From: an uncultured bacterium
Lineage (GTDB): Bacteria > Patescibacteriota > Microgenomatia > Levybacterales > UBA12049
Assembly: GCA_963826535.1 (NCBI GenBank)
Contig: CAWGXL010000011.1
Coordinates: 576,809-640,808 of the forward strand
Direction: 5' to 3'
DNA: 64,000 nucleotides
Shown here: piece after piece, positions 858-23,466 of the stretch
How positions within the stretch are numbered: position 1 is the first letter of the stretch
Layout of the letters: each line of letters begins with the position of its first letter
Translations under genes and position numbers: made by a program
Notes under the pieces: model-generated
What the model was told of the DNA's origin: nothing
The model's input: only the letters and a program-made list of their open reading frames with translations
Databases searched by the model: none

Positions 858-1163
858 TTAGATCAATTTTTCTGCTTTGAATTGGGGGAAGAGTAGTTTT
901 TTTAGCTCGATGCCTTCTTTTTCTGCAATATTTAAAGCTTCAAAAAGTATTTTTACCCCTTGTAGGTTTACTCCTTTCACTTGAGTCAAATATTTAACAA
1001 ACTGTAAGCGTTCCAAGTCGTTGATGGAAAACATTCTTCTTTTGGTGTCTGTTCTCTGACTAAGAAATACACCTATTTTTTCATAAAGCATAATAGTACG
1101 CGGATGGAGGTGCAGAAGTTTGGCTGCGACAGATATGGTTAAAATTGGTTGTTCTGTGCTCAT
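858..1163 (-). CDS. MerR-family helix-turn-helix transcriptional regulator
   Basis: The N-terminal HTH LTISVAAKLLHLHPRTIMLYEKIGV fits the MerR pattern (y.i.evA.l.gv.prtlryYE..Gl). The size (101 aa) and coiled C-terminus are typical of short MerR/HspR-like regulators. Confidence 0.6.
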   Translation of the reverse strand: MSTEQPILTISVAAKLLHLHPRTIMLYEKIGVFLSQRTDTKRRMFSINDLERLQFVKYLTQVKGVNLQGVKILFEALNIAEKEGIELKKLLFPQFKAEKLI

Positions 1164-2079
1164 GGTATAAAAGTTGAGTTAATATTAATATAAAAGTTGA
1201 TAGCGAGAATGTCAAGAGGGAAAATTTAGAAAATATTAGTTGTTAGAAATTTAATCGATTAGATGAGTTGTTAATTCAAGCAAACAGTATAGTGATCGAT
1301 GAAATTAAGTTAACAAATTCTTATAAGTAAAACATCATTGAAAATAATTGAATATAGGCTTTTGTATAATCACGGTTCTTCTGTTAAGGACTATATACTT
1401 AAGGCATAAAAACACTCTCAGCTATGGCGTAAGTCAGAGTTAGGATTTAATGATAAGAGAATAATAGAGTGAATCTATCTTATAACTTACAATTATTAGG
1501 GGAAGCTCTTATCTTGAGCGGTGTAGTGCCACTAAGAACGTTTTCGCTTCATGATTATAAATTTAGTAGTTTAGATTGCCGCTTTAGGGAAAGCGTGAGA
1601 ACATAAAGTTTGTTCTAATTTCAAGAATTAATAATTTATAAAATATAGATTTTTTTAGTATAGCCTTAAATAGTTGAAACCCATAAGACGGACAGGTCTA
1701 AAAAGGCGATTTTTTTACTTTTTTCTACCTTTTTCACGGTTTTTAATACATTTTTTGACCCATAAGACTTTTTTGATGTCCTATAGATGACTATTAAAAC
1801 TACTATTTGGTCCCTGTCAGTACCGGTTGTCTTGTGCTAAATAAGTAAAAGCCCCGACAAGACAGTAATATTTTTCATTCAGCTTCAGTTCCCATTAATG
1901 TTAACAGTAACTTTAGACCTGTAGAAAGTTTGATAAATGTACTTTTAGCTTCATTACTATATCTTTACGCACAATTTGAAATTGCCTTTTTTGGCTTTGT
2001 TAATGTATAAATAGGCATTGTTGACAGTTAATTCCCTATATTGTTAACATTTTTATAGGCAGGTAATTGTAATCATAAA

Positions 2080-5000
2080 ATGTATAGGCGCCTGCCCAAT
2101 AGTGAAAAAATAGTTTATATCCAGCAATATCTCTCCGGAGAAAAAGCCTCGAATATCTGTAAAGATGCTAATGTTTCAAGAACGATTTTTTATAGATGGT
2201 TGAAGACATATAGGTCTAGTCATAGCCTCAAAAATAAGGATATATTGGCTTCAAAAATAGTTAAAGGGAAAAACCATTGGAAATCTTTGAATAGGAAGCA
2301 GCAGGAAGAAATAATAAAGCTTGCTATAAAATTCCCTACGTATTCAGCCCAAAAAATTGCTTCAGTTACCAAAGTAAGTACTCATGGAGTTTGGAATGTA
2401 TTAAAGCGTTACTCATTGAATACCAGGAAAGATCGGGGCCTGTATATTTCTAAATATGGTAGAAGTTTTATTAAATGCCCGGCTTATAATGATAAACTGA
2501 ATATGATTACACGCTATGAGCAAGAAGAGAAAGCTCATATAATCTGTAAGGATTTTGCTGTTTCACGTACAATTTTCTACAAATGGCTTAAGAGATACAG
2601 GCAGTCTAATAATGATATTGCAGCATTGAATGATATAAGGCCGAAAGGAGAGAAGCATTGGCGTTTTGTGCCCGGGGCAACCGGGATGGTATTGGATTTA
2701 GTTGTTGCGAGTCCAGAATTTTCTGTAAATAAGCTCACTAAGGAGATTCAATCTAAATTGCAAGGAGCGAAATCCCCCCAACCCCCTTTAGAAAAGGGGG
2801 CTAAAGTAATGAGTGTTCTAGGCAGGCATGGTATTTATAATATTTTAAAACGTCTTGATTTAAATACATATGAAAAAAGGTTAGCATACGCCAGGGCACA
2901 AGTGCCAATTGTGGTTCCAAAACCTCAAATTGCGGAAGTATCATTGCCTCCACAGCCAAGATATTCCTTTTTATCTTTTCTTTCCCCGCCACTCCGGAAT
3001 TATTTTTCTTCTTCTTTTGGAGTTACCGCAAGTATCTGTCTGATTGTTATCTTAATACCCATAGTTCTTCTTTCTTCTTTTCTTCCGGCAGATAGTTTTG
3101 GGCAGAGGATCGCTTACTTTATTGCTTTTATTTCTCTTCTTTGCGGTCTGTTTTTCTTTCTCTACTCGCTCAAGTATTATCTTTCCATTGCCTATGTTCT
3201 TTCTTTTTCACGCCGGGAAGACGGACAAAAGGATGGGAGTCCTTCGACAGGCTCAGGATTTGCAAGATTTTTAGCCGGGATATTTGGAGTTTCTATCAGT
3301 GTTGAAAATGTTGCGTCAGACGCGGTTTCTTCAAAGGTGGGAACGTCAAACGTTCCTTTTTATAATAATACTGCGGTTGGGCTGCAAGCTGATTTATCTA
3401 ATGTGAAGCTGGAGAGGAATCCTTTTGTCTCTGTGCATGTGTCAACTTATAACGAGAAACGGGTGATTGACCGGCTTTTGAGTGCCTGCACTTCATTTGA
3501 TTATCCCAACTATGAAGTGATTGTCGCCGATGATTCAAATGATGAGACGGTGGGGCTGATTGAGAAATGGGCGCATAACCCACATATTAAAATATCCCAC
3601 AGAGATAGTAGGGAAGGGTACAAAGGGGGGGCTCTTCAACAAGCGCTCAGGGTTACCGATTCCAGGGCAGAGTTTATATTGGTATTTGATGCGGATTTCA
3701 TTCCATACCCGGATACTATAGTTCAGTTTTTGAAGTATTTTCAACTCGCTACCGGCGGATTGGATAAAATCTCCCCTAACCCCTCTTTAATAAAGAGGGG
3801 AAATCAATTATCTCCCCCTTTTCTAAAGGGGGATGGGGGGATTTCTCCTATAGCTGCAGTCCAAGGTTATCAGTGGCATGTTTTAAATAAATCGGAGAAC
3901 TGGATAACGCGCGGGGTAAGAAGTGAATACGCGGGGTCTTATGTTATAGAGAGGTCAGGAGCGGAGCTTTATCATGGACTGAAACAAATATCCGGATCGG
4001 TCTATATGATTAGGCGCGATGTGCTGCAGGGAATTGGCTGGGGAACCTCACTTACGGAGGACTTTGAACTGACATTGAAACTTTATGAGGCAGGATTCAA
4101 AGTAGTCTATACACCTTATATCCAAGCACCGGCTGAGGCGGTGTCAACTATAAAGAGGCTGATCAGGCAGAGAATGAGATGGGCGGAGGGACACTCGTTT
4201 AATATTAAGAGGATGCTTATTCCGCTTTTGTTTGGAAGACATGAGATGCCGGTCGGGATTGCCACGTCGTCCCGGATGAGCGGGACTCCTCGCAATGACA
4301 GAAAGGGAAGGGTTTTCATACCTTCACCGCTGACTCGTTCGGAAAAGATGGAACTAGTCTATTTGGCTCCTTATTATCTGCAGGCTGCTTTATTCATTGT
4401 GGGGACCTTATGCTGGTTTATAGCGGAAGTTATCTTTCAAGTCAGACTTCCTTTCTGGACCGAGGTCTGGGGTTGGTCGCTGGTCGCAACTAATCTTTTT
4501 GCTCTGCCTCTTATGAATATGATAGGTATGTTCATGGAGGAATCGGATGAGAAGGATTATTTGGGCATTATATCCTTTGTAGTTCTTTCATATATTGTGG
4601 CACCATTCCAAGCATATGCGGCGGTGAAGGGATTTTTGGAAGACGTGGAGGGGCCATGGTTTAGGACACCTAAGACGGGGCGTATTACAGATACGCTTAT
4701 GCCGGGGAGGATCGCGAGGTTTGTGAGAGGGATTTTTGGCAGACATGCGCCTGCAGAATTTAAAAAGTCAAATAAACCGAAGGAGCTTGGAAATTTAAAT
4801 ACTTACTTTGCTTTGGCTACGGCGAATAATCAGTTTGGCGATTTCAAGATCAGAAGGAAAAATATAAGATGGGCTGGAAATTTAAGCGTGGTTGCGCTTT
4901 TGATAATATCCACTTTACTGGCTAATTTTGCAAATACGATGAGCTTCTCTGAGTCAGCTTATGCGTCGCAGCCTATTATGAAGACAGTTGGTGATAATAA

Positions 5001-8000
5001 TGTTTCTACGGATAATGAAGAAAAGGTAGATTTGGGTATCTCATCTGAGGAGACATTAAAAAAAGAACCGAAGAATAAGGATACAATTATCAAAAATGCT
5101 TTGGCTAAAGAGATTTCAGGTTATCGCTCTATTGCCAAAAAAACTCACAGCGGAGAGTTAGTTGAATTTATCTTTCATGAATCAGCAAAGGTTCGGGTAA
5201 AACTGGGGCATCGGGAAATTGAGTTTCAAACCAACTATATTGGTGGACAAAGAATTAATCCTAAGAGCGCAAAGGTATATCAAGATCAGGAAGTAATCTA
5301 TGAAGAAATTGTAAAAGGTATTGATCTGAAATATACAATCAATGGAGATCTGATGACGGAAGAGTTTATCGTTAAAGATAGGGAGGCGGCCAAAACATTT
5401 ATTGAACCCCACTTCGCCAAGGCTTCGCGGGGCACTGTCGTGCAGACGGTGCAGACTGTTGATGTAAAAGTTGTTTCTCCTGAAAACGAGAAAACATTTG
5501 GTTTCTTTACTGATGAAGGGAAAGAGTTATTTAAGTTTGCGAGTCCGTTTGCTAAGGATAACGATGGGAAGGTGAACAATAATATCTCGATCAGTTTAGA
5601 AAAGAGCAATATAGGGCATAAGCTTACAAAAACATTGGGCGGGTCGGCTAGAAGCTGGCTTGTTGATCCGAAACGGGCTTATCCGGTTGCGATTGATCCG
5701 ACGGTTATTGTCTCGGGATCAATTGGGGCTGATAGCGAGGTGCAATTTGGCGGGCTGCAGCGGAAATTGGCGGCGGTAAATACTGGAAGTGCTGATGCAT
5801 GGTGCAATGACACAAGCGGGATAACCTGTACTAGCTTCTGGACGAAGCGGAGAAAGATCACTTTTAATAATTCTGCATCTGCTGAAAACTTAACAAATTT
5901 TCCTATTATGGTAAAGCTGAATTCAAGCCGGATTACTTACGCAGATACACAAAGCGCGGGGCAGGATCTGAGGTTTGTTGATCCAACAGACAATACGGTT
6001 GTTCTCCCGCATGAGGTTGAGGAGTTTAATGAGACAGGGGATGACTTTGTGTGGGTGAAGGTGCCGCAAATTGATTCAGGGTCAACAACAGATTATATAT
6101 GGATGTATTATGGGAATGGTAGTATTGGGGATGGATCGGATCCAGCGAATGTGTGGGAGACTAATTATAAAGGTGTTTGGCATTTGAAAGAGAATCCGGC
6201 GGGTGGAGCACCACAGATGCTTGATAGTACAACTAATAATGGTGATGGTACATCAGCCGGTACTATGACTAGCGGTGATCAGGTAGGAGGACAAATTGAC
6301 GGGAGTTTGGATTTGGATGGGACGAATGATACTATAAGCGTTCCCGATTCTTCGATATTCAGCTTTACAAACGGAAGCGGCACTGATCTGCCGTATACGC
6401 TTTCGGCATGGGTTTTTATGAGGGATATCACGGAAACAGCGGGGATCGTATCGAAATGGGCGGATGCCGCTGATGACGCGGAGTGGGTATTATATATTAC
6501 AGGAAGCACAATGCTTATTGAAAATTATCATTTTGATGTTACCAATATATTCAGAGGCCGCACTGTTGCTCTTAATGCTGGCGCTCATCAGGACAGATGG
6601 ATGCATGTTGTTGCCACATATGACGGCTCTGAAGCAGTCGGCGGGTTTGCTATATATTTTGACGGGGTGCGGGTTGATACCACAAATTCAACCTTAGGTA
6701 GTTACACCGGAATGTCCTCAGTGGATTCTCCGGTAAGGATGGGTTCATATGACGACGATTCGGCGACTTTCTTGAACGGTATCATTGACCACGTCAGCGT
6801 TGCAGCAACCAACCGCTCGGCTGATTGGGTTGAGGCGGAGTTTAAATCAGGGGCGGATACGATTAATTCGTTTGGGGGTGAACAAACAAGCGCAGGTGAT
6901 ATTAATACATTCTATGCTTTTTATAATGATGCCGGGGTAGTCTCTTATAAAAAGTCAACTAATGCGGGTGCTTCGTGGGGGAGTGCTGTGACTGTATCGT
7001 CAAATGGGTCTGATACTGACAATCATAATCCTTCCATTGCAATTTCAAATAATTTTATCCATGTTTTTTGGGTTGATGATGGAGATAACGAGGTTCATGC
7101 ACGGCGCTTAGATACCAACTCGGATACACTAGGCACAGAATGTCTTACTTTGACTAGCTCGGCAAACATCAGTTCCAACTATATGGTGTCGGTTGCACAG
7201 CTTAGCGATACGAGTGCCATGGTGGCTTTTTCTGACACATCAGGAGGTACTGCCGGAGTGGATGTGTATGAAGTGACTAGTCTTGATGGCGCATGTGCCA
7301 TGACTGATGTTCATCCTGGGAATATAACCTTTGGATCACAAGGAGCTGGCTTGACCGATGGAGATCGACCTGTACTTGTCGGCCTTTCATCAACAACCGC
7401 AGCAGTTATCTTCCAGGATGGGGATCTGTCGTTTTCCTATTATGACGTGGCGCTTGATGAGTGGACCAGGAATAATCAGCAAATTGCCAATGTAGCTGAT
7501 TCCGTCTACTCAGTAACGACTGACGGGACCACGATCTGGATTTTGAGTAAATCAGGAACGACTGCTGCAAATTTGTATAGTCTTAATACTTCAACTTCAG
7601 ATATAACCGAGACGCAAATTGATAGCGCGGCGTCAGCAACCAATGGCCAGGACAATGTATCAGATATTGATATGTATTGTATTTCGGATACTGATTGTAA
7701 AATTGTTTATACCGATTTAATAAGTGACGCGGCGCCGGATTTGATATTTGTTGATTGTAATAATGCTGTTTGTAGTTCAAGTACCGCAGTTACACTAACT
7801 TCTGATTGCGGTGTAGCAAGCGCGGGCTGTAATCCGGCAATTCATTGTTCTTCAGGAACAGATTGTCATATAGTATTTCAGTTTACGGATGCCATACCTA
7901 TGGCAAGATTTGTTGATTGCGACGGGGCTGATAATACTAATGCTTGCAGTACAAACGCGACAGTAAATACAAATGCTGATATTGGGGGTGCCACTACGAG

Positions 8001-9165
8001 AAGCCATCTTGCAATTGATTGTCCAACCGGTACCAATTGTAAGTTTATTTATGGTAATGATACAGGAAATGGTGTGGATTTTGTCGATTGCGCTAATGAC
8101 CAGTGCGCTATCGCGAGCGATGTAATAACGGAAGTTATTGATTTTGGCGTTTCGGTGGTTGCCCCAAAGGTGGCTCTTGATTGTCCAAGCCCAACAGCGT
8201 GTAAGGTGGTGGCGCAGGATATTGACGCTGGGACACTTGTACTGGTTGATTGTAGTGGTGCCGTAACAACTGAGACATGTGCAGTGCCTCCGGCGCCAGA
8301 TATTATTGATGCCAGTAATGTTAGTGCCACTGCTGACCGTGTGCCGGTTGCAATAGATTGCGCAGGCGCTCCTACTGACTGTAAGGTAGCTTATGGGGAT
8401 GATACCGATGACGATTTGACTTTCGCAGATTGTAATGACACTGATTGTGATAGTCCGACGCGGACTGATATTGATCTTACTGGTGGTGCGACGACAAATA
8501 CTTCGCCGAGAGTCGATATGCATTGTCTGACTGCAACTGATTGTAAAATCCTTTACGAGGGGACTTTGACATCAGGATCTGAAGTTGCGTATTTCGTTGA
8601 TTGCGATAGCGCGGCCTGTACTTCAGGATCAGCGCTTGCAGATTTGGGGAACGCAAACCCGCGTTTCGGCGGAGCTATCTATTGTCCGGCAACCGATAAT
8701 TGCAAAATGGCCTACTATGAGGGGACAACCGGCACTGCTCCGACTGTTCAATTCGCAGATTGCAGTAAAGCTAAGTGTATGCCTGACTGGACTGATGCGG
8801 CTGATCCGTTTACAGGAGCGACAAATGTGTTATCTGTTTCAATTACATATGATTCAGCAAATGCTGATTTGTACGCGCATATTATTAAGGATACTACAGA
8901 GCAGGCATATTGGAAGACTACTGATGCAGCATCGATTTCCTGGGGGGCAGAGACTTCGTATGCGTTTGATACTACCGTGGGATCGCTCTCTGAGATGTCT
9001 GCGCCTATAAAGGCTACGTCAACGGATTTGATTGGTGTGGTGTTGCGCCGTTCTACTGTTGACAATTTTGAGTTTGCACCCCTGCCTGATTTCTCGTTGA
9101 TATTAATAGTCATCCTTCCAGTGTTGCCAAGATTATTAAGGAAGATACATAGACGGAGATGTTGA
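2080..9165 (+). CDS. Giant (2361-aa) multidomain membrane protein: two tandem transposase-like HTH/winged-helix modules, a processive family-2 glycosyltransferase (cellulose/chitin-synthase-like), TM helices, DUF2341 plus LamG/ConA-like lectin domain, an Asp-box/BNR-like segment, seven Cys-rich tandem repeats and a C-terminal tripartite sorting-signal-like tail
   Basis: Aa 1-260 hold two repeats of an IS630/IS3 OrfA-like HTH (ASNICKDANVSRTIFYRWLKTY / AHIICKDFAVSRTIFYKWLKRY, each followed by a winged-helix-like segment). The GT2 domain carries VSVHVSTYNE, ADDSND, KGGALQ, DAD and the processive-synthase QRMRW (QxxRW) motif. Several TM helices flank the GT2 domain. DUF2341-like DLRFVD...VWVKVP...YIWMYYGN is followed by a LamG-like fold (TLSAWVF ... 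WMHVVATYDG ... IYFDGVRV). STNAGASWG resembles an Asp-box. Seven units of about 40 aa of the form [ILV]DCxxxTDCK[IV]xY...[FV]VDCxxxxC follow. The tail is EFAPLPDFSLILIVILPVLPRLLRKIHRRRC. The frame is continuous with no stops. A Met-less stretch between the HTH region and the first TM region leaves open that the GT2 protein starts at a non-ATG codon downstream of a separate small HTH gene. Confidence 0.6.
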   Translation: MYRRLPNSEKIVYIQQYLSGEKASNICKDANVSRTIFYRWLKTYRSSHSLKNKDILASKIVKGKNHWKSLNRKQQEEIIKLAIKFPTYSAQKIASVTKVSTHGVWNVLKRYSLNTRKDRGLYISKYGRSFIKCPAYNDKLNMITRYEQEEKAHIICKDFAVSRTIFYKWLKRYRQSNNDIAALNDIRPKGEKHWRFVPGATGMVLDLVVASPEFSVNKLTKEIQSKLQGAKSPQPPLEKGAKVMSVLGRHGIYNILKRLDLNTYEKRLAYARAQVPIVVPKPQIAEVSLPPQPRYSFLSFLSPPLRNYFSSSFGVTASICLIVILIPIVLLSSFLPADSFGQRIAYFIAFISLLCGLFFFLYSLKYYLSIAYVLSFSRREDGQKDGSPSTGSGFARFLAGIFGVSISVENVASDAVSSKVGTSNVPFYNNTAVGLQADLSNVKLERNPFVSVHVSTYNEKRVIDRLLSACTSFDYPNYEVIVADDSNDETVGLIEKWAHNPHIKISHRDSREGYKGGALQQALRVTDSRAEFILVFDADFIPYPDTIVQFLKYFQLATGGLDKISPNPSLIKRGNQLSPPFLKGDGGISPIAAVQGYQWHVLNKSENWITRGVRSEYAGSYVIERSGAELYHGLKQISGSVYMIRRDVLQGIGWGTSLTEDFELTLKLYEAGFKVVYTPYIQAPAEAVSTIKRLIRQRMRWAEGHSFNIKRMLIPLLFGRHEMPVGIATSSRMSGTPRNDRKGRVFIPSPLTRSEKMELVYLAPYYLQAALFIVGTLCWFIAEVIFQVRLPFWTEVWGWSLVATNLFALPLMNMIGMFMEESDEKDYLGIISFVVLSYIVAPFQAYAAVKGFLEDVEGPWFRTPKTGRITDTLMPGRIARFVRGIFGRHAPAEFKKSNKPKELGNLNTYFALATANNQFGDFKIRRKNIRWAGNLSVVALLIISTLLANFANTMSFSESAYASQPIMKTVGDNNVSTDNEEKVDLGISSEETLKKEPKNKDTIIKNALAKEISGYRSIAKKTHSGELVEFIFHESAKVRVKLGHREIEFQTNYIGGQRINPKSAKVYQDQEVIYEEIVKGIDLKYTINGDLMTEEFIVKDREAAKTFIEPHFAKASRGTVVQTVQTVDVKVVSPENEKTFGFFTDEGKELFKFASPFAKDNDGKVNNNISISLEKSNIGHKLTKTLGGSARSWLVDPKRAYPVAIDPTVIVSGSIGADSEVQFGGLQRKLAAVNTGSADAWCNDTSGITCTSFWTKRRKITFNNSASAENLTNFPIMVKLNSSRITYADTQSAGQDLRFVDPTDNTVVLPHEVEEFNETGDDFVWVKVPQIDSGSTTDYIWMYYGNGSIGDGSDPANVWETNYKGVWHLKENPAGGAPQMLDSTTNNGDGTSAGTMTSGDQVGGQIDGSLDLDGTNDTISVPDSSIFSFTNGSGTDLPYTLSAWVFMRDITETAGIVSKWADAADDAEWVLYITGSTMLIENYHFDVTNIFRGRTVALNAGAHQDRWMHVVATYDGSEAVGGFAIYFDGVRVDTTNSTLGSYTGMSSVDSPVRMGSYDDDSATFLNGIIDHVSVAATNRSADWVEAEFKSGADTINSFGGEQTSAGDINTFYAFYNDAGVVSYKKSTNAGASWGSAVTVSSNGSDTDNHNPSIAISNNFIHVFWVDDGDNEVHARRLDTNSDTLGTECLTLTSSANISSNYMVSVAQLSDTSAMVAFSDTSGGTAGVDVYEVTSLDGACAMTDVHPGNITFGSQGAGLTDGDRPVLVGLSSTTAAVIFQDGDLSFSYYDVALDEWTRNNQQIANVADSVYSVTTDGTTIWILSKSGTTAANLYSLNTSTSDITETQIDSAASATNGQDNVSDIDMYCISDTDCKIVYTDLISDAAPDLIFVDCNNAVCSSSTAVTLTSDCGVASAGCNPAIHCSSGTDCHIVFQFTDAIPMARFVDCDGADNTNACSTNATVNTNADIGGATTRSHLAIDCPTGTNCKFIYGNDTGNGVDFVDCANDQCAIASDVITEVIDFGVSVVAPKVALDCPSPTACKVVAQDIDAGTLVLVDCSGAVTTETCAVPPAPDIIDASNVSATADRVPVAIDCAGAPTDCKVAYGDDTDDDLTFADCNDTDCDSPTRTDIDLTGGATTNTSPRVDMHCLTATDCKILYEGTLTSGSEVAYFVDCDSAACTSGSALADLGNANPRFGGAIYCPATDNCKMAYYEGTTGTAPTVQFADCSKAKCMPDWTDAADPFTGATNVLSVSITYDSANADLYAHIIKDTTEQAYWKTTDAASISWGAETSYAFDTTVGSLSEMSAPIKATSTDLIGVVLRRSTVDNFEFAPLPDFSLILIVILPVLPRLLRKIHRRRC
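2770..2803. repeat. Hairpin module (CCCCCTTTAGAAAAGGGGG) of the palindromic element family, in-frame inside the giant CDS
   Basis: A perfect 8-bp stem with a 4-nt loop. It encodes SPQPPLEKGAK in the linker between the HTH modules. Confidence 0.6.
3768..3849. repeat. Composite palindromic element (ATCTCCCCT...CCCTCTTTAATAAAGAGGGG...CCCTTTTCTAAAGGGGGATGGGGGGATTTCTCC) inserted in-frame in the GT2 domain of the giant CDS
   Basis: It shares modules with the 17357..17494 copy (CCCTCTTTAATAAAGAGGG, TCAATTA, CCCTTTAATAAAGG, GGGATTTC flank). It encodes SPNPSLIKRGNQLSPPFLKGDGGISP between the DAD and QxxRW motifs. Confidence 0.7.
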
Positions 9166-9509: not shown

Positions 9510-11540
9510 TTAATTTGGAGTTATGATAAGGTTGGGGCTGTTAAGGCTTTCTTTAGAGCCGAATTCTATTCTTCCATTTTCTCCTTCATCAGTTTTTTTG
9601 ATAAGCCAGCCGTAGTCTTCGCTTGAGCCATTGATAAACTCTTGAATGTCTGTAGTTACATCAAATTCTACTATGCCTGTTTGATTATTGGAGATTGCAG
9701 TTGTTACAGTAGGTGTTGATATAAAAGGCCAAAAAATACTGTTCGTCATATTCCACTGTGTAGGTCCGCTACAGTTATCAACAGTATTGTTAATATTTGA
9801 ATCGGTAGCACACTTCCATGTCGTTCCCAAGCCTGTTCCCTTCACAGGAGGCGTATTATTATCATTAAATCCATTACCTTCTGCCCAATCTGATGATAAT
9901 CTATGTATTCCAATTGTTCTTCCTCCAGTTCCCCAATTATTTCCATTATCAGATATTGTTAATTGTAATTTTGCACTAAAGTTTTGACTGTTTCCGACAG
10001 CCTCTTCAATTTGTGATTGGTCAAAACGAACGAGAGCCCGGTTTTTTCCTTGTAACTGTACTCTCATAAAAGTGGATGATCCCTCGTTTTCATTTGGTGA
10101 TCCTTGTTTTATATACGAGTCCGCTATAGGCGTAAGTGTCGTAGGTGGAGTATTATTGACAGTGATCGTGATCGCCACAGTATCAGACTCAATCGGCGTA
10201 CCATCGTCTGTGACTGTAAACTCTATATTCGTATATGTGCCCTCCTGACTGTAATTAGGAGTCCAAGAGAATGTTGCAGTTTGCGGGTCGAATGTTGCAC
10301 CTTCCGGGAGGTTGTTAGCGCTGTAGGTAAGGTTGTTACCGTCTGGATCAGTTGCTGTAATAGTGAATTGAAGAATTTGTCCTTCATCTATGATTTTATC
10401 ACTGACTGAAGTAAGAAAAGGCTCTTGGTTATTTGGGATGATCCCATCCCACAAGAAAATCTCAGCATCATTATCCACGTATCCAGGCCAAATTACATAT
10501 TCATTATCAATAATAGGTGAAGAATCATGATAGTCATTACTCGTTATCTGAAGTGTTACTCCACTTGAAATATAGTAGAGAAAAATTTCAGGATCAGTGC
10601 CTTTATATTGATACCACGTAACTTTTTCGTGGCTGAACCAAGGTGAATTATCACTATAATTATTGTTAGTTATTTGGGTTGTTATGCCGGTAGTAACGTC
10701 ATAGAGAAAAATTTCATTATCAGTGCCATCGTTTTCAGTCCACACAACCTTTCCATCATTTATCGGGGGAATATAGTCAATACTGCTGTTATTGGTTATC
10801 TGACTCGTTGTGCCAGTTGCACTGTCGTAGATGAGAATTTCAATATGGGAGCCAACATATCTAGACCAAACTACCCTTCCATCGCTTATTTGAGGAGAAC
10901 GATCATCATAGCTATCGTTGGTTATTTGAGTTGTTGCTCCGGTTGCAATGTGGTAGAGAAAAATTTCACTATCAGTGTCATCATATCTAGACCAAACAAC
11001 CCTCCCATCATTAACTTGGGGTGAGGTACTCCCATGGTTAGTTATCTGGATCGTTGTTGCAGTGGCAATGTCGTAGAGGAAAATACCGTCAGAGCTAGCC
11101 CACACAACCTTTCCATCGTTGATTTGAGCGCCACCATCGCTATAAATATTGTTAGTTATCTGGATCGTTGTTGCAGTGGCAATGTCGTAGAGGAAAATTT
11201 CTGTATCAGTACCGTCAGAGCCGGTCCATACAACCTTTCCATCATTAATTCGAAGATCTGGATTGTAAAAGTTATTGCTATTTATCTGAGTGGTTGTCCC
11301 AGTTGCAATGTCATGGAGAAAAATCTCAGAAGAATTAAATCCAGTACCATGGTACCATGTAATTTTTCCATTGCTTATTTGGGGAGAATAATCATTATAA
11401 TTATTAGATGTTAACTGAGTTATCTCGGCCATTACAGTTGAAATTCCCACTGTCATTGATAATACTATTAACATCACTAAGACCAGGCATATTTGCATCG
11501 ACTGTACTACAAATCTAAATAATTGGCTAAAGTTTATCAT
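9510..11540 (-). CDS. Secreted repeat protein: signal peptide, about 8 PD40/TolB-like beta-propeller repeats, an Ig-like (He_PIG/cadherin-like) domain and a C-terminal glycan-binding-like (DNRLRE-like) domain
   Basis: N-terminal hydrophobic signal (MINFSQLF...VGISTVMA). The repeat unit is about 42 aa: DGKVVW...DTEIFLYDIATGTTTQITNN.Y.D.SPQI. Then comes TITATDPDGNNLTYSANNLPEGATFDPQTATFSWTP...YTNIEFTVTDDG (Ig-like), then ADSYIKQGSPNENEGSSTFMRVQL...RALVRFD...SDWAEGNG. The antisense ORFs 10674..11024 and 11034..11414 are artefacts of the sense repeats. Confidence 0.6.
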   Translation of the reverse strand: MINFSQLFRFVVQSMQICLVLVMLIVLSMTVGISTVMAEITQLTSNNYNDYSPQISNGKITWYHGTGFNSSEIFLHDIATGTTTQINSNNFYNPDLRINDGKVVWTGSDGTDTEIFLYDIATATTIQITNNIYSDGGAQINDGKVVWASSDGIFLYDIATATTIQITNHGSTSPQVNDGRVVWSRYDDTDSEIFLYHIATGATTQITNDSYDDRSPQISDGRVVWSRYVGSHIEILIYDSATGTTSQITNNSSIDYIPPINDGKVVWTENDGTDNEIFLYDVTTGITTQITNNNYSDNSPWFSHEKVTWYQYKGTDPEIFLYYISSGVTLQITSNDYHDSSPIIDNEYVIWPGYVDNDAEIFLWDGIIPNNQEPFLTSVSDKIIDEGQILQFTITATDPDGNNLTYSANNLPEGATFDPQTATFSWTPNYSQEGTYTNIEFTVTDDGTPIESDTVAITITVNNTPPTTLTPIADSYIKQGSPNENEGSSTFMRVQLQGKNRALVRFDQSQIEEAVGNSQNFSAKLQLTISDNGNNWGTGGRTIGIHRLSSDWAEGNGFNDNNTPPVKGTGLGTTWKCATDSNINNTVDNCSGPTQWNMTNSIFWPFISTPTVTTAISNNQTGIVEFDVTTDIQEFINGSSEDYGWLIKKTDEGENGRIEFGSKESLNSPNLIITPN

Positions 11541-11592
11541 TATTTTTTATAAATAAGAGCTATAATATTAATGTTAAAGAGTAATTTTTTAA

Positions 11593-11808
11593 TTGTCAAG
11601 ATTGCTAAACATCTACGGATTTGATTGGGTAGCACTGAGGCAGGGGAATAATTATGAGTTTGCTCCGCTTCCTGAATATTCCCTAATGCTTCTGGCAATT
11701 CTGCCGTTGTTGCCAAAGCTTTTGAAACGGCTTCAGCGGCGGAGACGACTGATAATGGCTGATTATAGTCAAAATGATAGATTTAGGAACTTGAGATATG
11801 GAGTATAG
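11593..11808 (+). pseudogene. Orphan 71-aa ORF carrying only a copy of the C-terminal cassette of the giant protein (NNYEFAPLPEYSLMLLAILPLLPKLLKRLQRRRR); likely a gene remnant or a detached sorting-signal fragment
   Basis: Nucleotide-level similarity to 9065..9165 (AATTTTGAGTTTGCACCCCTGCCTGATTTCTCG vs AATTATGAGTTTGCTCCGCTTCCTGAATATTCC). There is no upstream domain. It lies between two convergent/divergent minus-strand genes. Confidence 0.4.
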
Positions 11809-11935
11809 GTGAGAATGGTGATTGTTTCATTGTTTTGTTAATCAATTGTTCCATTGTTGAATTGCTATGAAGATATATTTGCAGTTGAATGATATTGATT
11901 TTATATTGGACGAGGGAGGAGAAGTATAAACTAAA

Positions 11936-13084
11936 CTATGGGAAAACTAGACCGTACTTCCATATACCGTTACCTCCACATGCTCCGTATACTGTGCGAT
12001 TAAGAGCTAGTCTAGGAACAGCAATTGAGTAGTATCCACCGCAGAGATCACTGTATGGAGGGTTACCATTGAGACGTGTCCAACTGTTACCGGAATTATT
12101 ACTTAGGTATAAACCGTCACCACCGGTGCCTGCATAAAGTCTTTGACCAATTCCAAAGACAATATCCTGTACATCTGTTGGTGGGATACCGCTACTTGCA
12201 GGTTGCCAAGTTGTTCCTCCGTCCAGACTTTTTATGAGGTGATTGACTCCATCAAGCGCGTCGCTTCCTACAAAAACCGTTTGGTTTGTAGCATAATTTG
12301 GAGAAAGGACTACAGACCATGCACTTATAGTGTTTTCGATAAACGGTATTGAAAGAGTCCAGGTTGCACCACCATCAATGCTTTTTATAACACCAACGCT
12401 ACTTGGCGGAGCTTGCATATGAAGAGTCGCAAAAACCGTTTGGCCTGTTGAGTAGTTTGGAGAAAATCCGAAATCAGTAATACCTTGCCATGATGCGTCG
12501 TCTGGAAGGGGATGAATTACTTGCCAGGTATTCCCACCATCGGTGCTTTTTGCCAAGAGACTTGTTGTTGAGGCAATGCTACTTGCGATAAAAACCGTAT
12601 GGTCAGCTGCGAAATTGGGTGAAATGCCTATTTCCAATCCAGTAACCGTTGGATAATCTTGTGCCAATTGGGAATTAACAACTTGCCAGCTTGCTCCTCC
12701 GTCTGTACTGCGATAGACAGTACTCATATGAGGAAAACTTACAAAGACTGTTTGATCTGTTGCATAATTTGGAGAGACTGCAATCGAAGGACGGTAAGGG
12801 TCGAATGAAGATGGATTGGCAGGAGGTAGGCCGTTGGTCAACTGTGTCCATGTTCCACCTGCATTAGTACTTTTGTAAATTCCCTCAGCTGTATTGGCAA
12901 ATAATGTCCGTTCAAAAAGCAATGTCGGTGCCAACGCTACAGATCCAGTAGGAATATCTGTCAGGCCAAGGTGTTTCCAGCCATTGAGTCCTGGAAATAG
13001 TTGTGCTGAAGCATGAGGTGAATATAGACTAAAGAAGAAAGCTACAAAAATTAAAATAACAATTTTGTATACTTTGAGGACCAT
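11936..13084 (-). CDS. Secreted BNR/Asp-box repeat beta-propeller protein (sialidase-like / Ycf48-like fold)
   Basis: Signal peptide MVLKVYKIVILIFVAFFFSLYSPHASA. Six S-x-D-G-G-x-[TS]-W Asp-boxes: KSTNAGGTWTQL, RSTDGGASWQVV, KSTDGGNTWQVI, KSIDGGATWTLS, KSLDGGTTWQPA, LSNNSGNSWTRL. Confidence 0.75.
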   Translation of the reverse strand: MVLKVYKIVILIFVAFFFSLYSPHASAQLFPGLNGWKHLGLTDIPTGSVALAPTLLFERTLFANTAEGIYKSTNAGGTWTQLTNGLPPANPSSFDPYRPSIAVSPNYATDQTVFVSFPHMSTVYRSTDGGASWQVVNSQLAQDYPTVTGLEIGISPNFAADHTVFIASSIASTTSLLAKSTDGGNTWQVIHPLPDDASWQGITDFGFSPNYSTGQTVFATLHMQAPPSSVGVIKSIDGGATWTLSIPFIENTISAWSVVLSPNYATNQTVFVGSDALDGVNHLIKSLDGGTTWQPASSGIPPTDVQDIVFGIGQRLYAGTGGDGLYLSNNSGNSWTRLNGNPPYSDLCGGYYSIAVPRLALNRTVYGACGGNGIWKYGLVFP

Positions 13085-13181
13085 AATTATTTATATTGTT
13101 AGGTTAACAGTAATTCAGAAAAATGTCAAATGTGCGAAATGTTTGCGAATTATTTTTCTTTAATATGCAGTAGTTAGTCTT

Positions 13182-13430
13182 TTAACGGCGGTGGGATTTG
13201 GATGAAAGTTTTGATGCGATGTACAGCAAAAGCATGACGACCAACGTCAGCGCGAGAAGAATTTGGACATTAATACCGCTTGAGATCTGATAGCGGTGCA
13301 GTGGGTTCGAGAACTTCGGGACTTGGGGTATTACGTTATAATCTTCGAACGGTCGGGATGACAATGGGTTATGTTTTAAATAGTTCTTTGTGTGTTCCGA
13401 GGAGTGAAAAATAGGCAATCGTCTCGTCAC
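13182..13430 (-). CDS. Small hypothetical membrane protein (C-terminal TM helix ...INVQILLALTLVVMLLLYIASKLSSKSHRR); its 3' end is duplicated at 13944..14047
   Basis: An 82-aa ORF. The last ~35 codons lie in the 105-bp direct repeat. The 5' part overlaps the toxin gene in another frame, so the true start is uncertain. Confidence 0.35.
   Translation of the reverse strand: MTRRLPIFHSSEHTKNYLKHNPLSSRPFEDYNVIPQVPKFSNPLHRYQISSGINVQILLALTLVVMLLLYIASKLSSKSHRR
13186..13290. repeat. Left copy of a ~105-bp imperfect direct repeat flanking the toxin-antitoxin module
   Basis: CGGCGGTGGGATTTGGATGAAAGTTTTGATGCGATGTACAGCAAAAGCATGACGACCAACGTCAGCGCGAGAAGAATTTGGACATTAATAC is about 93% identical to 13944..14047. 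Confidence 0.8.
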
Positions 13431-13641
13431 CTGATTGTACTTCTTCGTAAAATGCCCGGTAGTCGTTGGTTATATCAATACTTCTATACCCCTCATACCC
13501 CCTCTGAAGTGCATGGTTATTGAGGACTGGCTCTTGGAGATTTTTCTCAAAGATTTTAATTCTTTCAAGGAAACTCTTGCGGATTCTCACGTCAAGTTTC
13601 TTCAATTTTTTCAGTAATTGGGGGCTTACCTGTGTTTTCAT
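13369..13641 (-). CDS. Type II toxin, RelE/ParE superfamily (YafQ/HigB-like mRNA interferase)
   Basis: A 90-aa protein with the C-terminal RelE/ParE signature ...YEGYRSIDITNDYRAFYEEVQ...IAYFSLLGTHKELF. Its start overlaps the upstream antitoxin stop (ATGA). Confidence 0.7.
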   Translation of the reverse strand: MKTQVSPQLLKKLKKLDVRIRKSFLERIKIFEKNLQEPVLNNHALQRGYEGYRSIDITNDYRAFYEEVQSGDETIAYFSLLGTHKELFKT

Positions 13642-13916
13642 ACACCTTGCTTGTGCAGCCAGGCAATCATTTCATCTGCAGAATCAAATATTGGCGAGGC
13701 TTTTCCTGCTTTTCTATTTTCTCTTGCTTTTTTTAGTTGTGCTTTTGCATAAGGAGTAAGTTTTTCACCGGTAAACGTAATTGCTTTTCTTCTCGCAAAC
13801 TCTTTAAGTAACCCAGTGATAACAGCACTTAGACTCAACCCCATCTCTTTGGCAGTTTTTTGTGCGTCATCTTTCACCCTCCGGTCTGTTTTTATGAGTA
13901 TAGATACTGTATTCAT
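13638..13916 (-). CDS. Type II antitoxin, RelB/DinJ family (ribbon-helix-helix)
   Basis: A 92-aa protein: MNTVSILIKTDRRVKDDAQKTAKEMGLSLSAVITGLLKEF matches the DinJ/RelB RHH N-terminus. It is the first gene of a two-gene operon with the toxin. Confidence 0.7.
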   Translation of the reverse strand: MNTVSILIKTDRRVKDDAQKTAKEMGLSLSAVITGLLKEFARRKAITFTGEKLTPYAKAQLKKARENRKAGKASPIFDSADEMIAWLHKQGV

Positions 13917-13943
13917 ATAGTAAAATTATATCTTTTTTATATA

Positions 13944-14047
13944 TTCTGTCAAGCGCGGTGGGATTTGGATGAAAGTTTTGATGCAATGTACAGCAAAAGC
14001 ATGACGATCAAGGTCAGCGCGAGAAGAATTTGGACATTAATACTGAT
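13944..14047. repeat. Right copy of the ~105-bp direct repeat. On the minus strand it encodes a truncated 38-aa copy (MNNFWEISINVQILLALTLIVMLLLYIASKLSSKSHRA) of the small membrane protein's C-terminus
   Basis: Direct alignment with 13186..13290. The residual short ORF is below the 60-aa track threshold. Confidence 0.75.
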
Positions 14048-14556
14048 TTCCCAGAAATTATTCATTTTTACCAAATTGTATGCTTTATCGATCAGGCTTC
14101 CAGTCTGGTATCATTGTATATGAACAATAAAATGATAAATAAGAAGAAGTTTTTATCTAATGTGATGGAGATTTTTGGTAGATTATCTATGAGACCTGGT
14201 AGACTTCTTGTAAAAAGCAATATAAATCAGCAGTATTGTCACTGCTAAAAGTAGTGTTATGATAAGGAATCTAGTATTAATATCGAGAAAAAATGCTTCG
14301 TTCATATATATACTTGCTCGTCCAGTTTTACGGCTAAAACTAAAAATATGATAGCAGCGATAATATCGTATGTCAATGACAAGAAGCCTGGAAGTGAATT
14401 TATAGGTACGAAATTAGGTGTGATTATGACTAAGCCTAGAGCTGCTGCTGCTAAATTGGTAGATAGACCAGAAAGGACTCTCAGGAGTGACTTATTGCCA
14501 AAAAATTTTCTCATTAAAAATACTCTACTGATTTTAGAGATATCTGTCAATATTGT

Positions 14557-15147
14557 ATGAAAAATGTTTTGAAAGCGGCCAGACTTCATCCTTCAAAGGA
14601 GATGTTTATCACTATCTTTCTTATTTTGGTCTTGATGCTTATGCTTTTTCCTTTCATGTCGACGTTTAATGATGTATTGACGAGGATTGTTATTAATTTT
14701 AAGGGGTATTGGTTTATTAGGGAGGTTATTGTGCCGTTTGAGGTGAAGATGGTGGGGGCGATACTTTCGCTAATGGGCATGCAGGTTACGTTGACCAAGG
14801 AGTATGTCGTAATCGGGCAGGCTGAGCCGTTTGTGGCGGAGATTATGTGGAATTGTATCGGGTGGCAGTCGCTGCTTTTCTTCATAACGACTTCATGGGT
14901 GGGATTACAAGGAGACCGCTACACAAATTTTTCAAAACTTAAAGCCTTTGTAATAGGACTTCTTGGTACTTTTCTTATTAATATTTTCCGGATTGTTATC
15001 GTTATATTAATCGCTTATTATGCCGGGCAATTTGTGGCTGCTATTGTGCATGATTACGGGTCGCTTCTGGTGAGCATTGGCTGGCTGTTTTTCTACTGGT
15101 GGTTTGTGTACAGTTTTGTGCTAGAGGAGAGGGATGCTTCTAGTTAG
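14557..15147 (+). CDS. Small (196-aa) polytopic membrane protein with an exosortase/archaeosortase-like signature (candidate sorting transpeptidase)
   Basis: Five or six predicted TM helices. FVAEIMWNCIGWQSL resembles the exosortase active-site block V.EaCSG.rSL. GTFLINIFRIVIVIL, 47 residues later, matches the conserved N-x-x-R block; the Cys...Arg spacing of 41-47 residues is as in ArtA/XrtA. The gene lies about 3-5 kb from two ORFs carrying a PEP-CTERM-like tripartite tail. The membrane-protein call is solid; the family call is tentative. Confidence 0.45.
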   Translation: MKNVLKAARLHPSKEMFITIFLILVLMLMLFPFMSTFNDVLTRIVINFKGYWFIREVIVPFEVKMVGAILSLMGMQVTLTKEYVVIGQAEPFVAEIMWNCIGWQSLLFFITTSWVGLQGDRYTNFSKLKAFVIGLLGTFLINIFRIVIVILIAYYAGQFVAAIVHDYGSLLVSIGWLFFYWWFVYSFVLEERDASS

Positions 15148-18889: not shown

Positions 18890-19690
18890 TTAAGCAGCAT
18901 TTTGTTTCGGAATGAATTGATGGCCTGGATGATTTTGCTCCCATGATTGTGATAAGGTCTGAAATTTATCGCGGAGCGATGTAACCTCTGCTTCTCCCAA
19001 TTGTATTTCATCACCATTTGATATTTTGCTACCTTCTGTTGGTATAATCTCGTATTTATTCATTAACGTTCTGACATCCCCGTATAATTTTTTAAACTCT
19101 GGGGATTGAATTGGCTTGTCAGCTAACATATACATTTGTAAATGGCTTGAATGGGGATCTGACTCTTCTTTTCTATTTTTTCTTTCTTTTTTCTGAAACT
19201 TTAGGTCTTCGTCCATTATATGGGAAGCGACTTGATAGACAAACTTATCCTGAGGTAATTCATTTGCATCATATATGTTCCCTTCATATCCTCCAAACCA
19301 CGACATATCCCGTGGGTTTGGCTTATCTTGGTAAACCCGGTTGAATACCATCATTAAGCGTCCCCATTGGGATCGAAAGCCTGCATTATTTTCTAGAGCA
19401 GCTTTATCATCTAATACAAGTTTTTCGCCAGTCGATTCATCAATCTGTTCTTTCATATGTTCTTCAGGAACGCGTAGCCGTTCAATTTGTGGCTTCATCC
19501 GAGCTTCAAGAGCATCAACAGAGCCTATACCATCTCTATCGTACTGTCTTGCGATATGAATTGATATTAATAGCTGAAGGGTTGGGTTACCCTGAGAATG
19601 GTGAAACGACCAAAAAAAGTTACCTAGTATCTTTCTATCTAGAGGTTTCAAACCGTTTGCATGTTCCAACCCTTCTTTTAGGCCGTCCAT
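18890..19690 (-). CDS. Hypothetical protein (266 aa, acidic/basic, coiled-coil rich)
   Basis: A long ORF with no recognisable motifs. It contains a low-complexity poly-pyrimidine tract (19175..19200, encoding KKERKNRKEES). Confidence 0.4.
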   Translation of the reverse strand: MDGLKEGLEHANGLKPLDRKILGNFFWSFHHSQGNPTLQLLISIHIARQYDRDGIGSVDALEARMKPQIERLRVPEEHMKEQIDESTGEKLVLDDKAALENNAGFRSQWGRLMMVFNRVYQDKPNPRDMSWFGGYEGNIYDANELPQDKFVYQVASHIMDEDLKFQKKERKNRKEESDPHSSHLQMYMLADKPIQSPEFKKLYGDVRTLMNKYEIIPTEGSKISNGDEIQLGEAEVTSLRDKFQTLSQSWEQNHPGHQFIPKQNAA

Positions 19691-19781
19691 AATTTAATTA
19701 TATCATTCCCTAGGGTAAATCTGAAAAATCTAGAAAGGATAACTTGCATTTTGGGATTTCTCCTCGGTATTATTAATTAGT

Positions 19782-21104: not shown

Positions 21105-21346
21105 AATATTAATATTGCTTCTTTTTATTTCGCGATGAATACACTTTTTCTAGTCATCGGACCTTTAACTATTTGTGAAAATGATGCCTAAGAATTAGTT
21201 GCTTATTACATTTAAGTTAATATTGCCTATCATTCATTCCTACGAAAAAGTGTATTCCTCGCTTTATTTTTACTCATATATTATCTTTTGGCGATATGTT
21301 GAATATAAGTATTAATAATTTTTGCAAAACCTGCTAAGATGGGGTT

Positions 21347-23458: not shown

Positions 23459-23466
23459 ATTTTATA

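Follow-up and report, generated by a model that had tools for sequence, protein, structure and literature searches.

Why should an enzyme that builds a polysaccharide begin with a DNA-binding region of the kind found in transposases? The question is raised by one gene in the window, a stretch of 64,000 nt from an uncultured bacterium of the Levybacterales (Patescibacteriota, Microgenomatia; assembly GCA_963826535.1, contig CAWGXL010000011.1, positions 576,809 to 640,808 of the forward strand). Its product, 2361 residues long, joins two helix-turn-helix (HTH) units, a membrane-embedded glycosyltransferase of family 2 (GT2) and a large ectodomain. An earlier note, made from the letters of the window, had described this architecture and was right in nearly every respect. 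The reading that we favour, with moderate confidence, is that of a processive synthase resembling BcsA whose tethered HTH modules bind the promoter of their own gene, with an ectodomain that a dedicated mini-exosortase processes. The gene product is one polytopic membrane protein, and its family occurs mainly in Microgenomates. Processive GT2 synthases are controlled by cyclic di-GMP (c-di-GMP) receptors or partner proteins. In the literature, we found no description of such a synthase with a DNA-binding domain of a sequence-specific type in the same polypeptide, nor of this architecture, of an exosortase in bacteria of the candidate phyla radiation (CPR), or of the promoter element reported below. 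Both the class of enzyme and the class of sorting system are known; their combination with a built-in DNA-binding region, the cognate-looking promoter element and the minimal dedicated exosortase are new. The sorting signal with its exosortase gene, the promoter motif and a set of in-frame palindromic elements go beyond the earlier note.

The N-terminal ~275 residues are two tandem paired-like modules from the DNA-binding domains of transposases of the IS481/IS630/Tc1 type (coordinates of all features are collected in Table 1). In Pfam searches, HTH_23, HTH_29 and HTH_28 each matched twice (residues 14-46 and 139-176) and HTH_32 matched at residues 167-224. Among the NCBIfam models, those of insertion sequence (IS) transposases were matched over their N-terminal ~110 positions only (IS481, 5e-18, positions 5-112; IS630, 1.8e-8, positions 9-117; model lengths 284-299), with scores far below the cut-offs. 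Because only these N-terminal parts are matched, a DDE domain is lacking; the Pfam results for the whole protein contain no rve/DDE family, as the earlier note had anticipated, and by its domain content the protein is not a transposase. Between the two units the identity is 38%. An AlphaFold2 (AF2) model of the HTH region, based on a 24-sequence alignment, reached a mean predicted local distance difference test (pLDDT) score of 88.3 and shows two times three plus three helices. In each unit, a three-helix bundle of the HTH_32 type without a beta wing forms the second sub-domain, and the winged helix proposed earlier has to be given up. With the model as query, Foldseek retrieved from the PDB the paired domains of Pax5 and Pax6 on DNA, Mos1, Tc3, SETMAR, Cbp1 (a CRISPR repeat-binding protein) and CENP-B, the top matches all being paired or transposase domains in complex with DNA. 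By sequence, the HTH region found matches at chance level only in the PDB. Residues 1-305 are strongly basic, with 56 K/R versus 22 D/E. The two-HTH paired-like architecture is shared with the IS630/Tc1-mariner and IS481 transposases, Pax, SETMAR and CENP-B; unlike in those transposases, there is no DDE domain, the module is tandemly duplicated, and it is fused to a membrane enzyme.

This fusion recurs widely. A search of 5.8 billion proteins led to 68 GT2 relatives, about 45 of which bear HTH families within the same protein; their source names are Daviesbacteria, Chisholmbacteria, Roizmanbacteria, Gottesmanbacteria and Curtissbacteria, and automated pipelines label some members "glycosyltransferase/transposase". 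A genome scan with one genome per species found 147 stretches, from which 74 distinct loci were retained, nearly all of them in metagenome-assembled genomes (MAGs) of Patescibacteria, where a genome commonly has several paralogs. In ~70 of the 85 gene copies at these loci, HTH and GT2 lie in a single open reading frame (ORF); the copies stem from independent assemblies, and a stop codon at the junction was seen in none of the 85. Segment-by-segment BLAST revealed a constant core of HTH, linker with two helices, GT2 and C-terminal helices, with two HTH units in most relatives and one in some, and an ectodomain that varies between members beyond residue ~980. In 29 aligned N-termini both HTH units, the PP motif of the linker, the first transmembrane helix (TM1), the motif FFFLYSLKYY of the second (TM2) and the start of GT2 are conserved. 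Furthermore, a double-HTH profile run over 1.84 billion representatives (E <= 1e-30) yielded 315 clusters, with the match always at residues ~1-280. Every match of at least 1000 aa has GT2 motifs and the short ones stop mid-domain, resembling contig-end fragments; the double-HTH family appears to be restricted to these synthases. Since the junction and the single frame are conserved across the family, the recent gene fusion, the two separate genes and the assembly chimera that the earlier note had considered are set aside, and the fusion is, judged by this distribution, old and conserved and not an artefact.

The uninterrupted frame that the earlier note had described was confirmed, the remaining two forward frames across 2080..9165 containing 130 and 243 stops. 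The GC content was put too low at 36%: the ORF has 43.5%, and only the HTH region is AT-rich. The stretch without ATG between HTH and GT2 exists and exceeds the ~330 codons given before, a Met codon being absent from residues 245 to 642. In-frame GTG codons lie at residues 275 and 278 and a TTG at residue 289; no Shine-Dalgarno-like sequence was found 5' of these three codons and no promoter-like site in the DNA of the HTH-GT2 linker.

Apparent split genes among the relatives were also inspected. At locus L074 a frameshift falls within the GT2 domain (after VCDDSTPDS), away from the junction, and L007 and L024 carry additional HTH-only or degraded copies upstream, beside an intact fused gene. 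At L007 the stand-alone ORF (6001-6762), just 5' of the intact gene, encodes two HTH units and no synthase part; it may represent a paralog that was truncated or the DNA-binding module in a free form. Many contigs with a gene of the Patescibacteria type are titled as MAGs of Gammaproteobacteria, Bathyarchaeia, Nevskiaceae or Dehalococcoidales (L006-L009, L022, L038, L043, L075 and others), probably as a result of mis-binning or mislabelling.

The second part of the protein is a GT2 synthase. Three Pfam families match residues 450-803 above their cut-offs (Glycos_transf_2, PF00535, 4.4e-19; Glyco_tranf_2_3, PF13641, 2.2e-18; Glyco_trans_2_3, PF13632, 1.7e-15). The full motif set is present (VADDS, residues 482-486; FDADF, 536-540; LTEDF, 658-662; QRMRW, 697-701), as expected from the membrane-embedded GT2 with QRMRW of the earlier note. 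These motifs are invariant in 26 family members and align with those of BcsA. E. coli BcsA is also the top PDB sequence match (1.3e-10), both halves being aligned including TED and QxxRW. Foldseek with the low-confidence core model placed BcsA first (2e-12), followed by PcManGT and the hyaluronan synthases of Chlorella virus and Xenopus; 625 columns were aligned with BcsA at a TM-score of ~0.3 and a model pLDDT of 51, and this fold search is taken as weak support, the model not being used for topology.

Hydropathy gives two helices N-terminal and four C-terminal of GT2. TM1 and TM2 would, according to their hydropathy, bring the chain back to the cytoplasm, and of the three hydrophobic segments that follow GT2 two should span the membrane. 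The motif EGPWFRTPKTGRITD is invariant in the family, and residues 856-944 contain 16 K/R versus 5 D/E. Basic residues thus prevail in this loop, which precedes the export helix, and they do so in the C-terminal tail as well. In the Cys-rich ectodomain acidic residues prevail (85 K/R versus 188 D/E). The predicted topology accordingly runs from cytoplasmic HTH units through two helices to a cytoplasmic GT2, membrane segments, an export helix, the ectodomain, a last helix and a basic tail. BcsA, hyaluronan synthase (HAS), PgaC, NodC and PcManGT have the GT2 fold, the D/DxD/TED/QxxRW motifs and flanking transmembrane helices in common with this protein. In contrast to synthases of the BcsA type, it has no PilZ domain, only two N-terminal helices and another set of C-terminal helices with EGPWFRTPKTGRITD, and it carries an N-terminal region of DNA-binding type and a ~1400-aa ectodomain in the same polypeptide.

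What the N-terminal position may be used for is suggested by a sister clade, the REC-MshEN-GT2 proteins of Chloroflexota (Limnocylindria). They have a homologous core of GT2 and membrane helices, with 43-47% identity, and the same end, (I/V)PE followed by a helix and RWWKRRRP, with tandem paralogs there. Their N-terminus, however, consists of a receiver (REC) domain and MshEN, a domain of the c-di-GMP-binding type, in place of the HTH units, and because the same core carries REC and MshEN at this site, it may well be a regulatory position. Elsewhere in the family this slot holds HTH_32-only repeats (P0032, P0036) or low-complexity basic regions (P0035, P0054-56), and some "HTH-less" members from Patescibacteria have repeats of the second HTH sub-domain only. 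The promoter element TTGACA...TAAC is absent from the sister-clade genes. One of these loci (L005; ENA ERZ28656168 scaffold_2) has tandem REC + MshEN + GT2 genes at 10001-14668 and 19063-23733, followed by related ~700-aa or 288-aa proteins without known family; in the 10 kb covered there, nothing recognisable as an exosortase gene was seen.

A candidate operator for the HTH units lies in the promoter of their own gene. Directly upstream of the gene lies the block TTGACA-GTTAA-TTCCC-TATAT-TGTTAACAT, with the family form TTGACA-N5-TTCCC-N6-TGTTAACAT. The pattern TTGAC-N18-KTWACA has a single match in the window, at the synthase promoter. Within the upstream gap of 916 bp two blocks are conserved with relatives, 1186-1224 and 2021-2063; the first adjoins the start of the divergent MerR/HspR-like gene. 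A conserved RNA or small ORF in this gap was considered and rejected, only the two promoter blocks being conserved, and scans of the window with Rfam (gathering thresholds) and for tRNAs gave no matches. Among the relatives, the patterns TTGAC-N17-20-KTWAC and/or WCCC-N6-8-DTWAC were sought within 260 nt upstream. Of 64 distinct genes with an HTH, 46 have them, compared with none of the 7 HTH-less relatives (Fisher p 3.6e-4, uncorrected for phylogeny), and they occur in 1.1% and 3.2%, respectively, of random 260-nt windows. A stricter combined pattern has 61 matches in ~2 Mb (both strands). Annotated family genes follow 38 of them and at least 12 of the other 23 precede long ORFs that start with an HTH of this family, which gives a total of at least 50 of 61. 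In its 3' half the element looks like an extended -10 (TGnTAACAn), 16-18 bp away from TTGACA. Because the internal spacer (T/A)CCCA is conserved in spite of only 35-50% identity between the proteins, a binding site probably lies between -35 and -10, which is the usual position of a repressor site. Promoters with GGTAAC are accompanied in 13 of 13 cases by a first recognition helix S-R-K-T-x-Y-x-W, those with T-T(A/T)AC in 29 of 29 by S-R-(T/V/P/A/Q)-x-(F/I/L/Y)-Y-x-W. Apart from the fused HTH, no DNA-binding domain is invariably inherited along with the element. The two-site layout of the window recurs, with a spacing of 145 bp, at L001 and L002/L037; a match of two HTH units to two operator sites holds for these loci and the window and is not general.

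The other end of the protein points to a sorting system. It reads PLPDF-SLILIVILPVLPRLL-RKIHRRRC (C-terminal sequence PLPDFSLILIVILPVLPRLLRKIHRRRC). A consensus of FEF(A/S)T(L/V)PE, a helix with P..LP and a K/R-rich tail ends nearly all members, including the Chloroflexota sister clade. This tripartite tail has the appearance of a sorting signal of the exosortase/archaeosortase type, and in the sampled loci it is confined to ORFs of the synthase family. The window also encodes a protein of the exosortase/archaeosortase family, with homologs at L003 and L004 that score 36.8 and 23.2 bits against TIGR04178. All named subfamilies are missed by the window protein, the best being ArtC (33.4 bits versus a cut-off of 100) before XrtX (16.6/170) and XrtV (15.7/313). 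At ortholog loci an exosortase homolog of 183-201 aa (36-62% identical) lies directly 3' of the synthase gene, sometimes with a ~270-aa gene without known function in between (L001, L003). In the 45 gene copies with enough downstream sequence to be evaluated, an exosortase-family gene on the same strand follows within 1.1 kb in 33 and within 6 kb in 38. Conserved in the homologs are W(N/S)CIGWQS, N..R and HD(Y/W); the catalytic Cys, Arg and His may lie in these motifs.

A tripartite tag, a paired membrane enzyme with Cys/Arg/His and a link to polysaccharide biosynthesis are common to this pair and to the PEP-CTERM/exosortase protein-sorting system (Haft et al.; PMC1569441) as well as PGF-/PEF-CTERM/archaeosortase. 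There are differences from PEP-CTERM-type systems: the enzyme is very short and stands outside the named subfamilies, the tag is outside the curated models, the pairing of enzyme and substrate appears to be one-to-one in the sampled loci, and the substrate is a polytopic synthase, which cleavage would leave in the membrane. Between the synthase and exosortase genes of the window there are two genes for surface proteins on the opposite strand (Table 1), ~1.4 kb with short ORFs only (13100-14556) and no trace of the ~270-aa gene. Further downstream, 16679-18856 (+) encodes a membrane protein of 725 aa without a family match, whose counterpart at L003 (610 aa, 38-47% identity) adjoins the exosortase-family gene; it may be part of the same system.

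The mechanism that we propose for the gene combines these elements. By analogy with BcsA, HAS and PgaC, the GT2 and membrane core would polymerise a beta-linked glycan from a nucleotide sugar and translocate it. The basic HTH modules would remain in the cytoplasm, tethered to the membrane, and bind TTCCC-N6-TGTTAACA between the -35 and -10 of their own promoter as well as the copy 143 bp upstream, and this binding would repress the gene in a negative autoregulation. Given that translation of the 7-kb gene starts with the HTH, such an autoregulation would probably be co-translational and act in cis; binding of this kind is a known behaviour of IS transposases, the source of the domain. The ectodomain, with LamG, DUF2341, propeller-like segment and Cys repeats and variable between paralogs, would be displayed outside the cell and bind the polymer or the surface of a partner cell. 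Finally, the mini-exosortase would cut at the PE/PD motif, thereby removing the C-terminal helix with its tail, and pass the new C-terminus on to an acceptor. Domain composition, conservation, tag, gene linkage and promoter element are established by computation; DNA binding, the polymer made and cleavage we infer. The suggestion of the earlier note that a domesticated transposase HTH serves as a regulatory module is the option that fits best, on account of the paired-like fold, the conservation in the family and the promoter element that co-occurs with the HTH.

Several results weigh against this proposal. The Foldseek E-values of the HTH model are weak (0.04-0.6), which is to be expected of two sub-domains on a flexible linker, and the list of matches is nonetheless coherent. 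For residues 296-985, AF2 gave a poor model (pLDDT 51, 11 sequences), which does not establish the channel or the number of spans. With the four NCBIfam equivalog models of characterised synthases, the scores of the protein fall far short of the cut-offs (PgaC 81.7/422.3, CelA 62.1/699.1, PRK11498 45.4/992, NodC 31.9/550); the protein is predicted to work like the PgaC, CelA and NodC enzymes and yet stands outside those families. In the promoter region, the two-site layout is restricted to the closest orthologs, and the correspondence of half-site and recognition helix follows clades and represents about one independent event, which is compatible with co-evolution and no proof of it. A different factor or a special sigma factor could occupy the element, whose 3' half overlaps an extended -10. 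As to sorting, an NCBIfam search with four C-terminal tails (E <= 10) matched no curated sorting-signal model, and the exosortase gene of the window lies 5.4 kb from the synthase gene and is not adjacent to it.

The strongest rival, unlikely by our estimate and still to be taken seriously, gives the HTH modules a non-transcriptional role. Through unspecific binding of DNA, or binding of RNA or protein, they would tether the synthase to the nucleoid, serve in its positioning or oligomerisation, or provide an allosteric input to GT2, and the promoter element would be read by another factor. The high basicity of residues 1-305 suits this view, and so does the N-terminal slot as a variable "input" that elsewhere holds REC with MshEN, HTH_32-only repeats or low-complexity basic regions; allosteric parallels are the PilZ domain of BcsA and REC-MshEN in the sister clade, and the link between HTH and operator is a correlation only. 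However, the solved paired-like bipartite HTH structures that match are all sequence-specific DNA binders, the element accompanies the HTH and does not occur in HTH-less relatives, and no other DNA-binding gene is consistently linked, a MerR gene being found at ~15 of 80 loci.

An improbable alternative holds that the element is a promoter for an alternative sigma factor or a MerR/HspR operator, inherited through duplications and unrelated to the fused HTH. It can draw on TTGACA and the extended -10-like TGnTAACAT at a sigma-70-like spacing, on the mode of action of MerR-type regulators, which act from inside promoter spacers, and on the MerR-family gene upstream in the window, which recurs (58-64% identity) at the same position at L002, L003 and ~12 other loci. 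Yet the spacer of 16-18 bp differs from the 19-20 bp typical of promoters controlled by MerR, L001 and both synthase copies of L004 have the element without a MerR neighbour, and the conservation of (T/A)CCCA exceeds what -35 and -10 need. MerR/HspR as the factor that binds the element was therefore downgraded, its spacer length being unfit and several loci lacking it. That the fusion itself is an artefact or accident, whether an assembly chimera, a newly captured transposase fragment or two genes with a non-ATG start of the synthase, is highly implausible: in its favour are the ~400 codons without ATG after residue 244, the in-frame GTG and TTG codons and the AT-richer HTH part, and against it stand the fusion with its conserved junction, present in 315 sequence clusters and dozens of assemblies of independent origin, the lack of a junction stop in any ortholog, and internal start codons and a linker devoid of Shine-Dalgarno-like and promoter-like signals.

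The preferred reading, a synthase that represses its own gene, can be taken further, although the extended form is a long shot. In it, a transposase DNA-binding domain and its site would have been domesticated together as a self-contained cis switch: the nascent HTH would bind its own gene copy, and membrane insertion would tether the locus. Paralogs with differing ectodomains and variants of operator and recognition helix would then be orthogonal or mutually exclusive units for surface variation in an episymbiont, and the mini-exosortase might join the C-terminus of the ectodomain to the enzyme's own glycan. Known proteins that come closest to the proposed autoregulation are ToxR and CadC, with an N-terminal cytoplasmic DNA-binding domain and membrane helices, and "trigger enzymes" such as PutA; enzyme and putative regulator are here likewise combined in one protein. 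In contrast to these, the domain is paired-like and not an OmpR winged helix or ribbon-helix-helix, the enzyme is a synthase with an ectodomain, and DNA binding is a prediction.

If the HTH modules do bind the family promoter, the system would be a rare bacterial case of a domesticated transposase DNA-binding domain and a new coupling of envelope polymer synthesis to gene expression. It would also allow an autoregulation that is tethered to the membrane, and possibly co-translational, to be tested in tiny cells in which the chromosome is always near the membrane. In addition, a minimal exosortase (~190 aa) with an apparently single substrate is a simple model for the poorly understood biochemistry of exosortases, and the variable ectodomains of the abundant paralogs are candidates for host attachment in Patescibacteria, whose cell-surface biology is almost unknown.

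Table 1. Features of the synthase gene and its surroundings (positions in the window; aa, amino acids).
Feature	Position	Strand	Basis or remark
MerR/HspR-like regulator, 101 aa, divergent	858..1163	-	membership in the system uncertain
Distal TTCCC-N6-TGTTAAC copy	1889..1905	+	143 bp 5' of proximal copy
Candidate family-specific promoter/operator: TTGACA (2021-2026), TTCCC (2032-2036), TGTTAACAT (2042-2050, extended -10-like)	2021..2050	+	ends 30 bp before ATG
HTH-synthase-ectodomain ORF	2080..9165	+	ATG start, 2361 aa, no interruption
HTH unit a, two three-helix HTH sub-domains (paired-like)	2080..2463 (residues 1-128)	+	Pfam, NCBIfam, AF2 pLDDT 82-97, Foldseek
HTH unit b, second paired-like module	2464..2904 (residues 129-275)	+	Pfam/NCBIfam, alignment, AF2
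32-nt palindromic insertion CCCCCTTT-AGA-AAAGGGGG encoding SPQPPLEKGAK	2769..2800	+	in-frame, loop of HTH unit b
Linker with PP motif, TM1 (residues 313-335), TM2 (344-375, FFFLYSLKYY)	2905..3204	+	alignment, hydropathy
GT2 catalytic domain	3421..4239	+	Pfam, NCBIfam, motifs, BcsA PDB matches
GT2 motif codons	DDS 3523-3537, DAD 3685-3699, TED 4051-4065, QRMRW 4168-4182	+	motif search
Two palindromic insertions in GT2 loop encoding PSLIKRGNQL, SPPFLKGDGG	3780..3845	+	in-frame
Imperfect hairpin encoding IATSSRMSGTPRNDRKG in variable loop after QRMRW helix	4250..4300	+	in-frame
C-terminal membrane region: three hydrophobic helices (residues 757-855), EGPWFRTPKTGRITD motif (4648-4692), basic loop, export anchor helix (residues 932-954)	4348..4941	+	alignment, hydropathy
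First ectodomain module, common to closest orthologs	5020..5889	+	DUF7948 E 1.2e-5, below cut-off
DUF2341 + Laminin_G_3 block	5959..6831	+	Pfam; inserted, absent from P0002, P0003, P0005
Beta-rich segment with one Asp-box-like motif, ortholog-shared	6880..7680	+	BNR_4 E 0.011, 15.6 bits vs 27.3 cut-off
Seven Cys-rich repeats	7681..8799	+	30 Cys between residues 1860 and 2240
Putative C-terminal sorting signal: PLPDF, hydrophobic helix with P..LP, RKIHRRRC	9076..9162	+	family tail comparison
Beta-propeller/He_PIG/DNRLRE surface protein	9510-11540	-	between synthase and exosortase genes
BNR/sortilin-like surface protein	11936-13084	-	between synthase and exosortase genes
Exosortase/archaeosortase-family protein, 196 aa	14557..15147	+	TIGR04178 39.2 bits vs cut-off 23

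The ectodomain modules named by the earlier note were largely recovered. DUF2341 (PF10102) covers residues 1294-1360 (9.9e-11, 42-46 bits versus a gathering score of 23.4), and the LamG/ConA-like fold is represented by Laminin_G_3 (PF13385) at residues ~1413-1584, which exceeds its cut-off when the segment is scanned alone (3.7e-14, 53.6 versus 27.6 bits). This block is evidently an inserted module and not defining for the family, because the closest orthologs lack it. As for the Asp-box-like segment, one motif is visible, and the accompanying BNR_4 match stays below the threshold. The seven tandem repeats rich in Cys were found as described; a Pfam scan of the isolated segment gave no match. 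Very large proteins of Patescibacteria with DUF2341 have been described as putative, rapidly reshuffled adhesins (PMC11809585), an account that the variable ectodomains of the present family fit.

At least four short palindromic insertions keep the frame of the synthase gene. The element in HTH unit b is absent from all 28 other aligned members, the AF2 model has a pLDDT of 56 there, and an inverted copy with 97% identity (blastn-short) is found at 3814-3845. The element at 3780-3810 recurs at 17413-17443, inside the ORF of the 725-aa membrane protein, and the loop that follows QRMRW varies in length across the family. The GC-rich palindromes comprise the types CCCCCTTT-loop-AAAGGGGG, CCCCTCTTTA-A-TAAAGAGGGG and a GATTGCC...GCAATGAC hairpin, with TPRNDRKG among the added peptides. 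Visual inspection, pattern searches and blastn-short revealed these hairpins of 8-10 bp, and an automated inverted-repeat search gave 0 pairs. Two relatives, P0002 and P0011, have other hairpin-type inserts ("PRASLGRNDKG", "VIARS...APRND") in the two GT2 loops that carry insertions in the window protein (corresponding to its residues ~560-595 and ~722-750), which suggests that these two loops are permissive hot spots of insertion. The insertions resemble the in-frame palindromic elements of Rickettsia.

The window also contains, from 23000 to 63300, a large envelope-glycan biosynthesis region with genes for GT4, GT2, GT9, PMT_2, a Wzx-type flippase, C-methyltransferases and a sugar kinase/isomerase. 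Three paralogous membrane proteins of ~900 aa are encoded at 33987-36884, 36950-39841 and 43186-45855; all end in SWW.KE(D/E)E, and one has a weak PTPS_related match.

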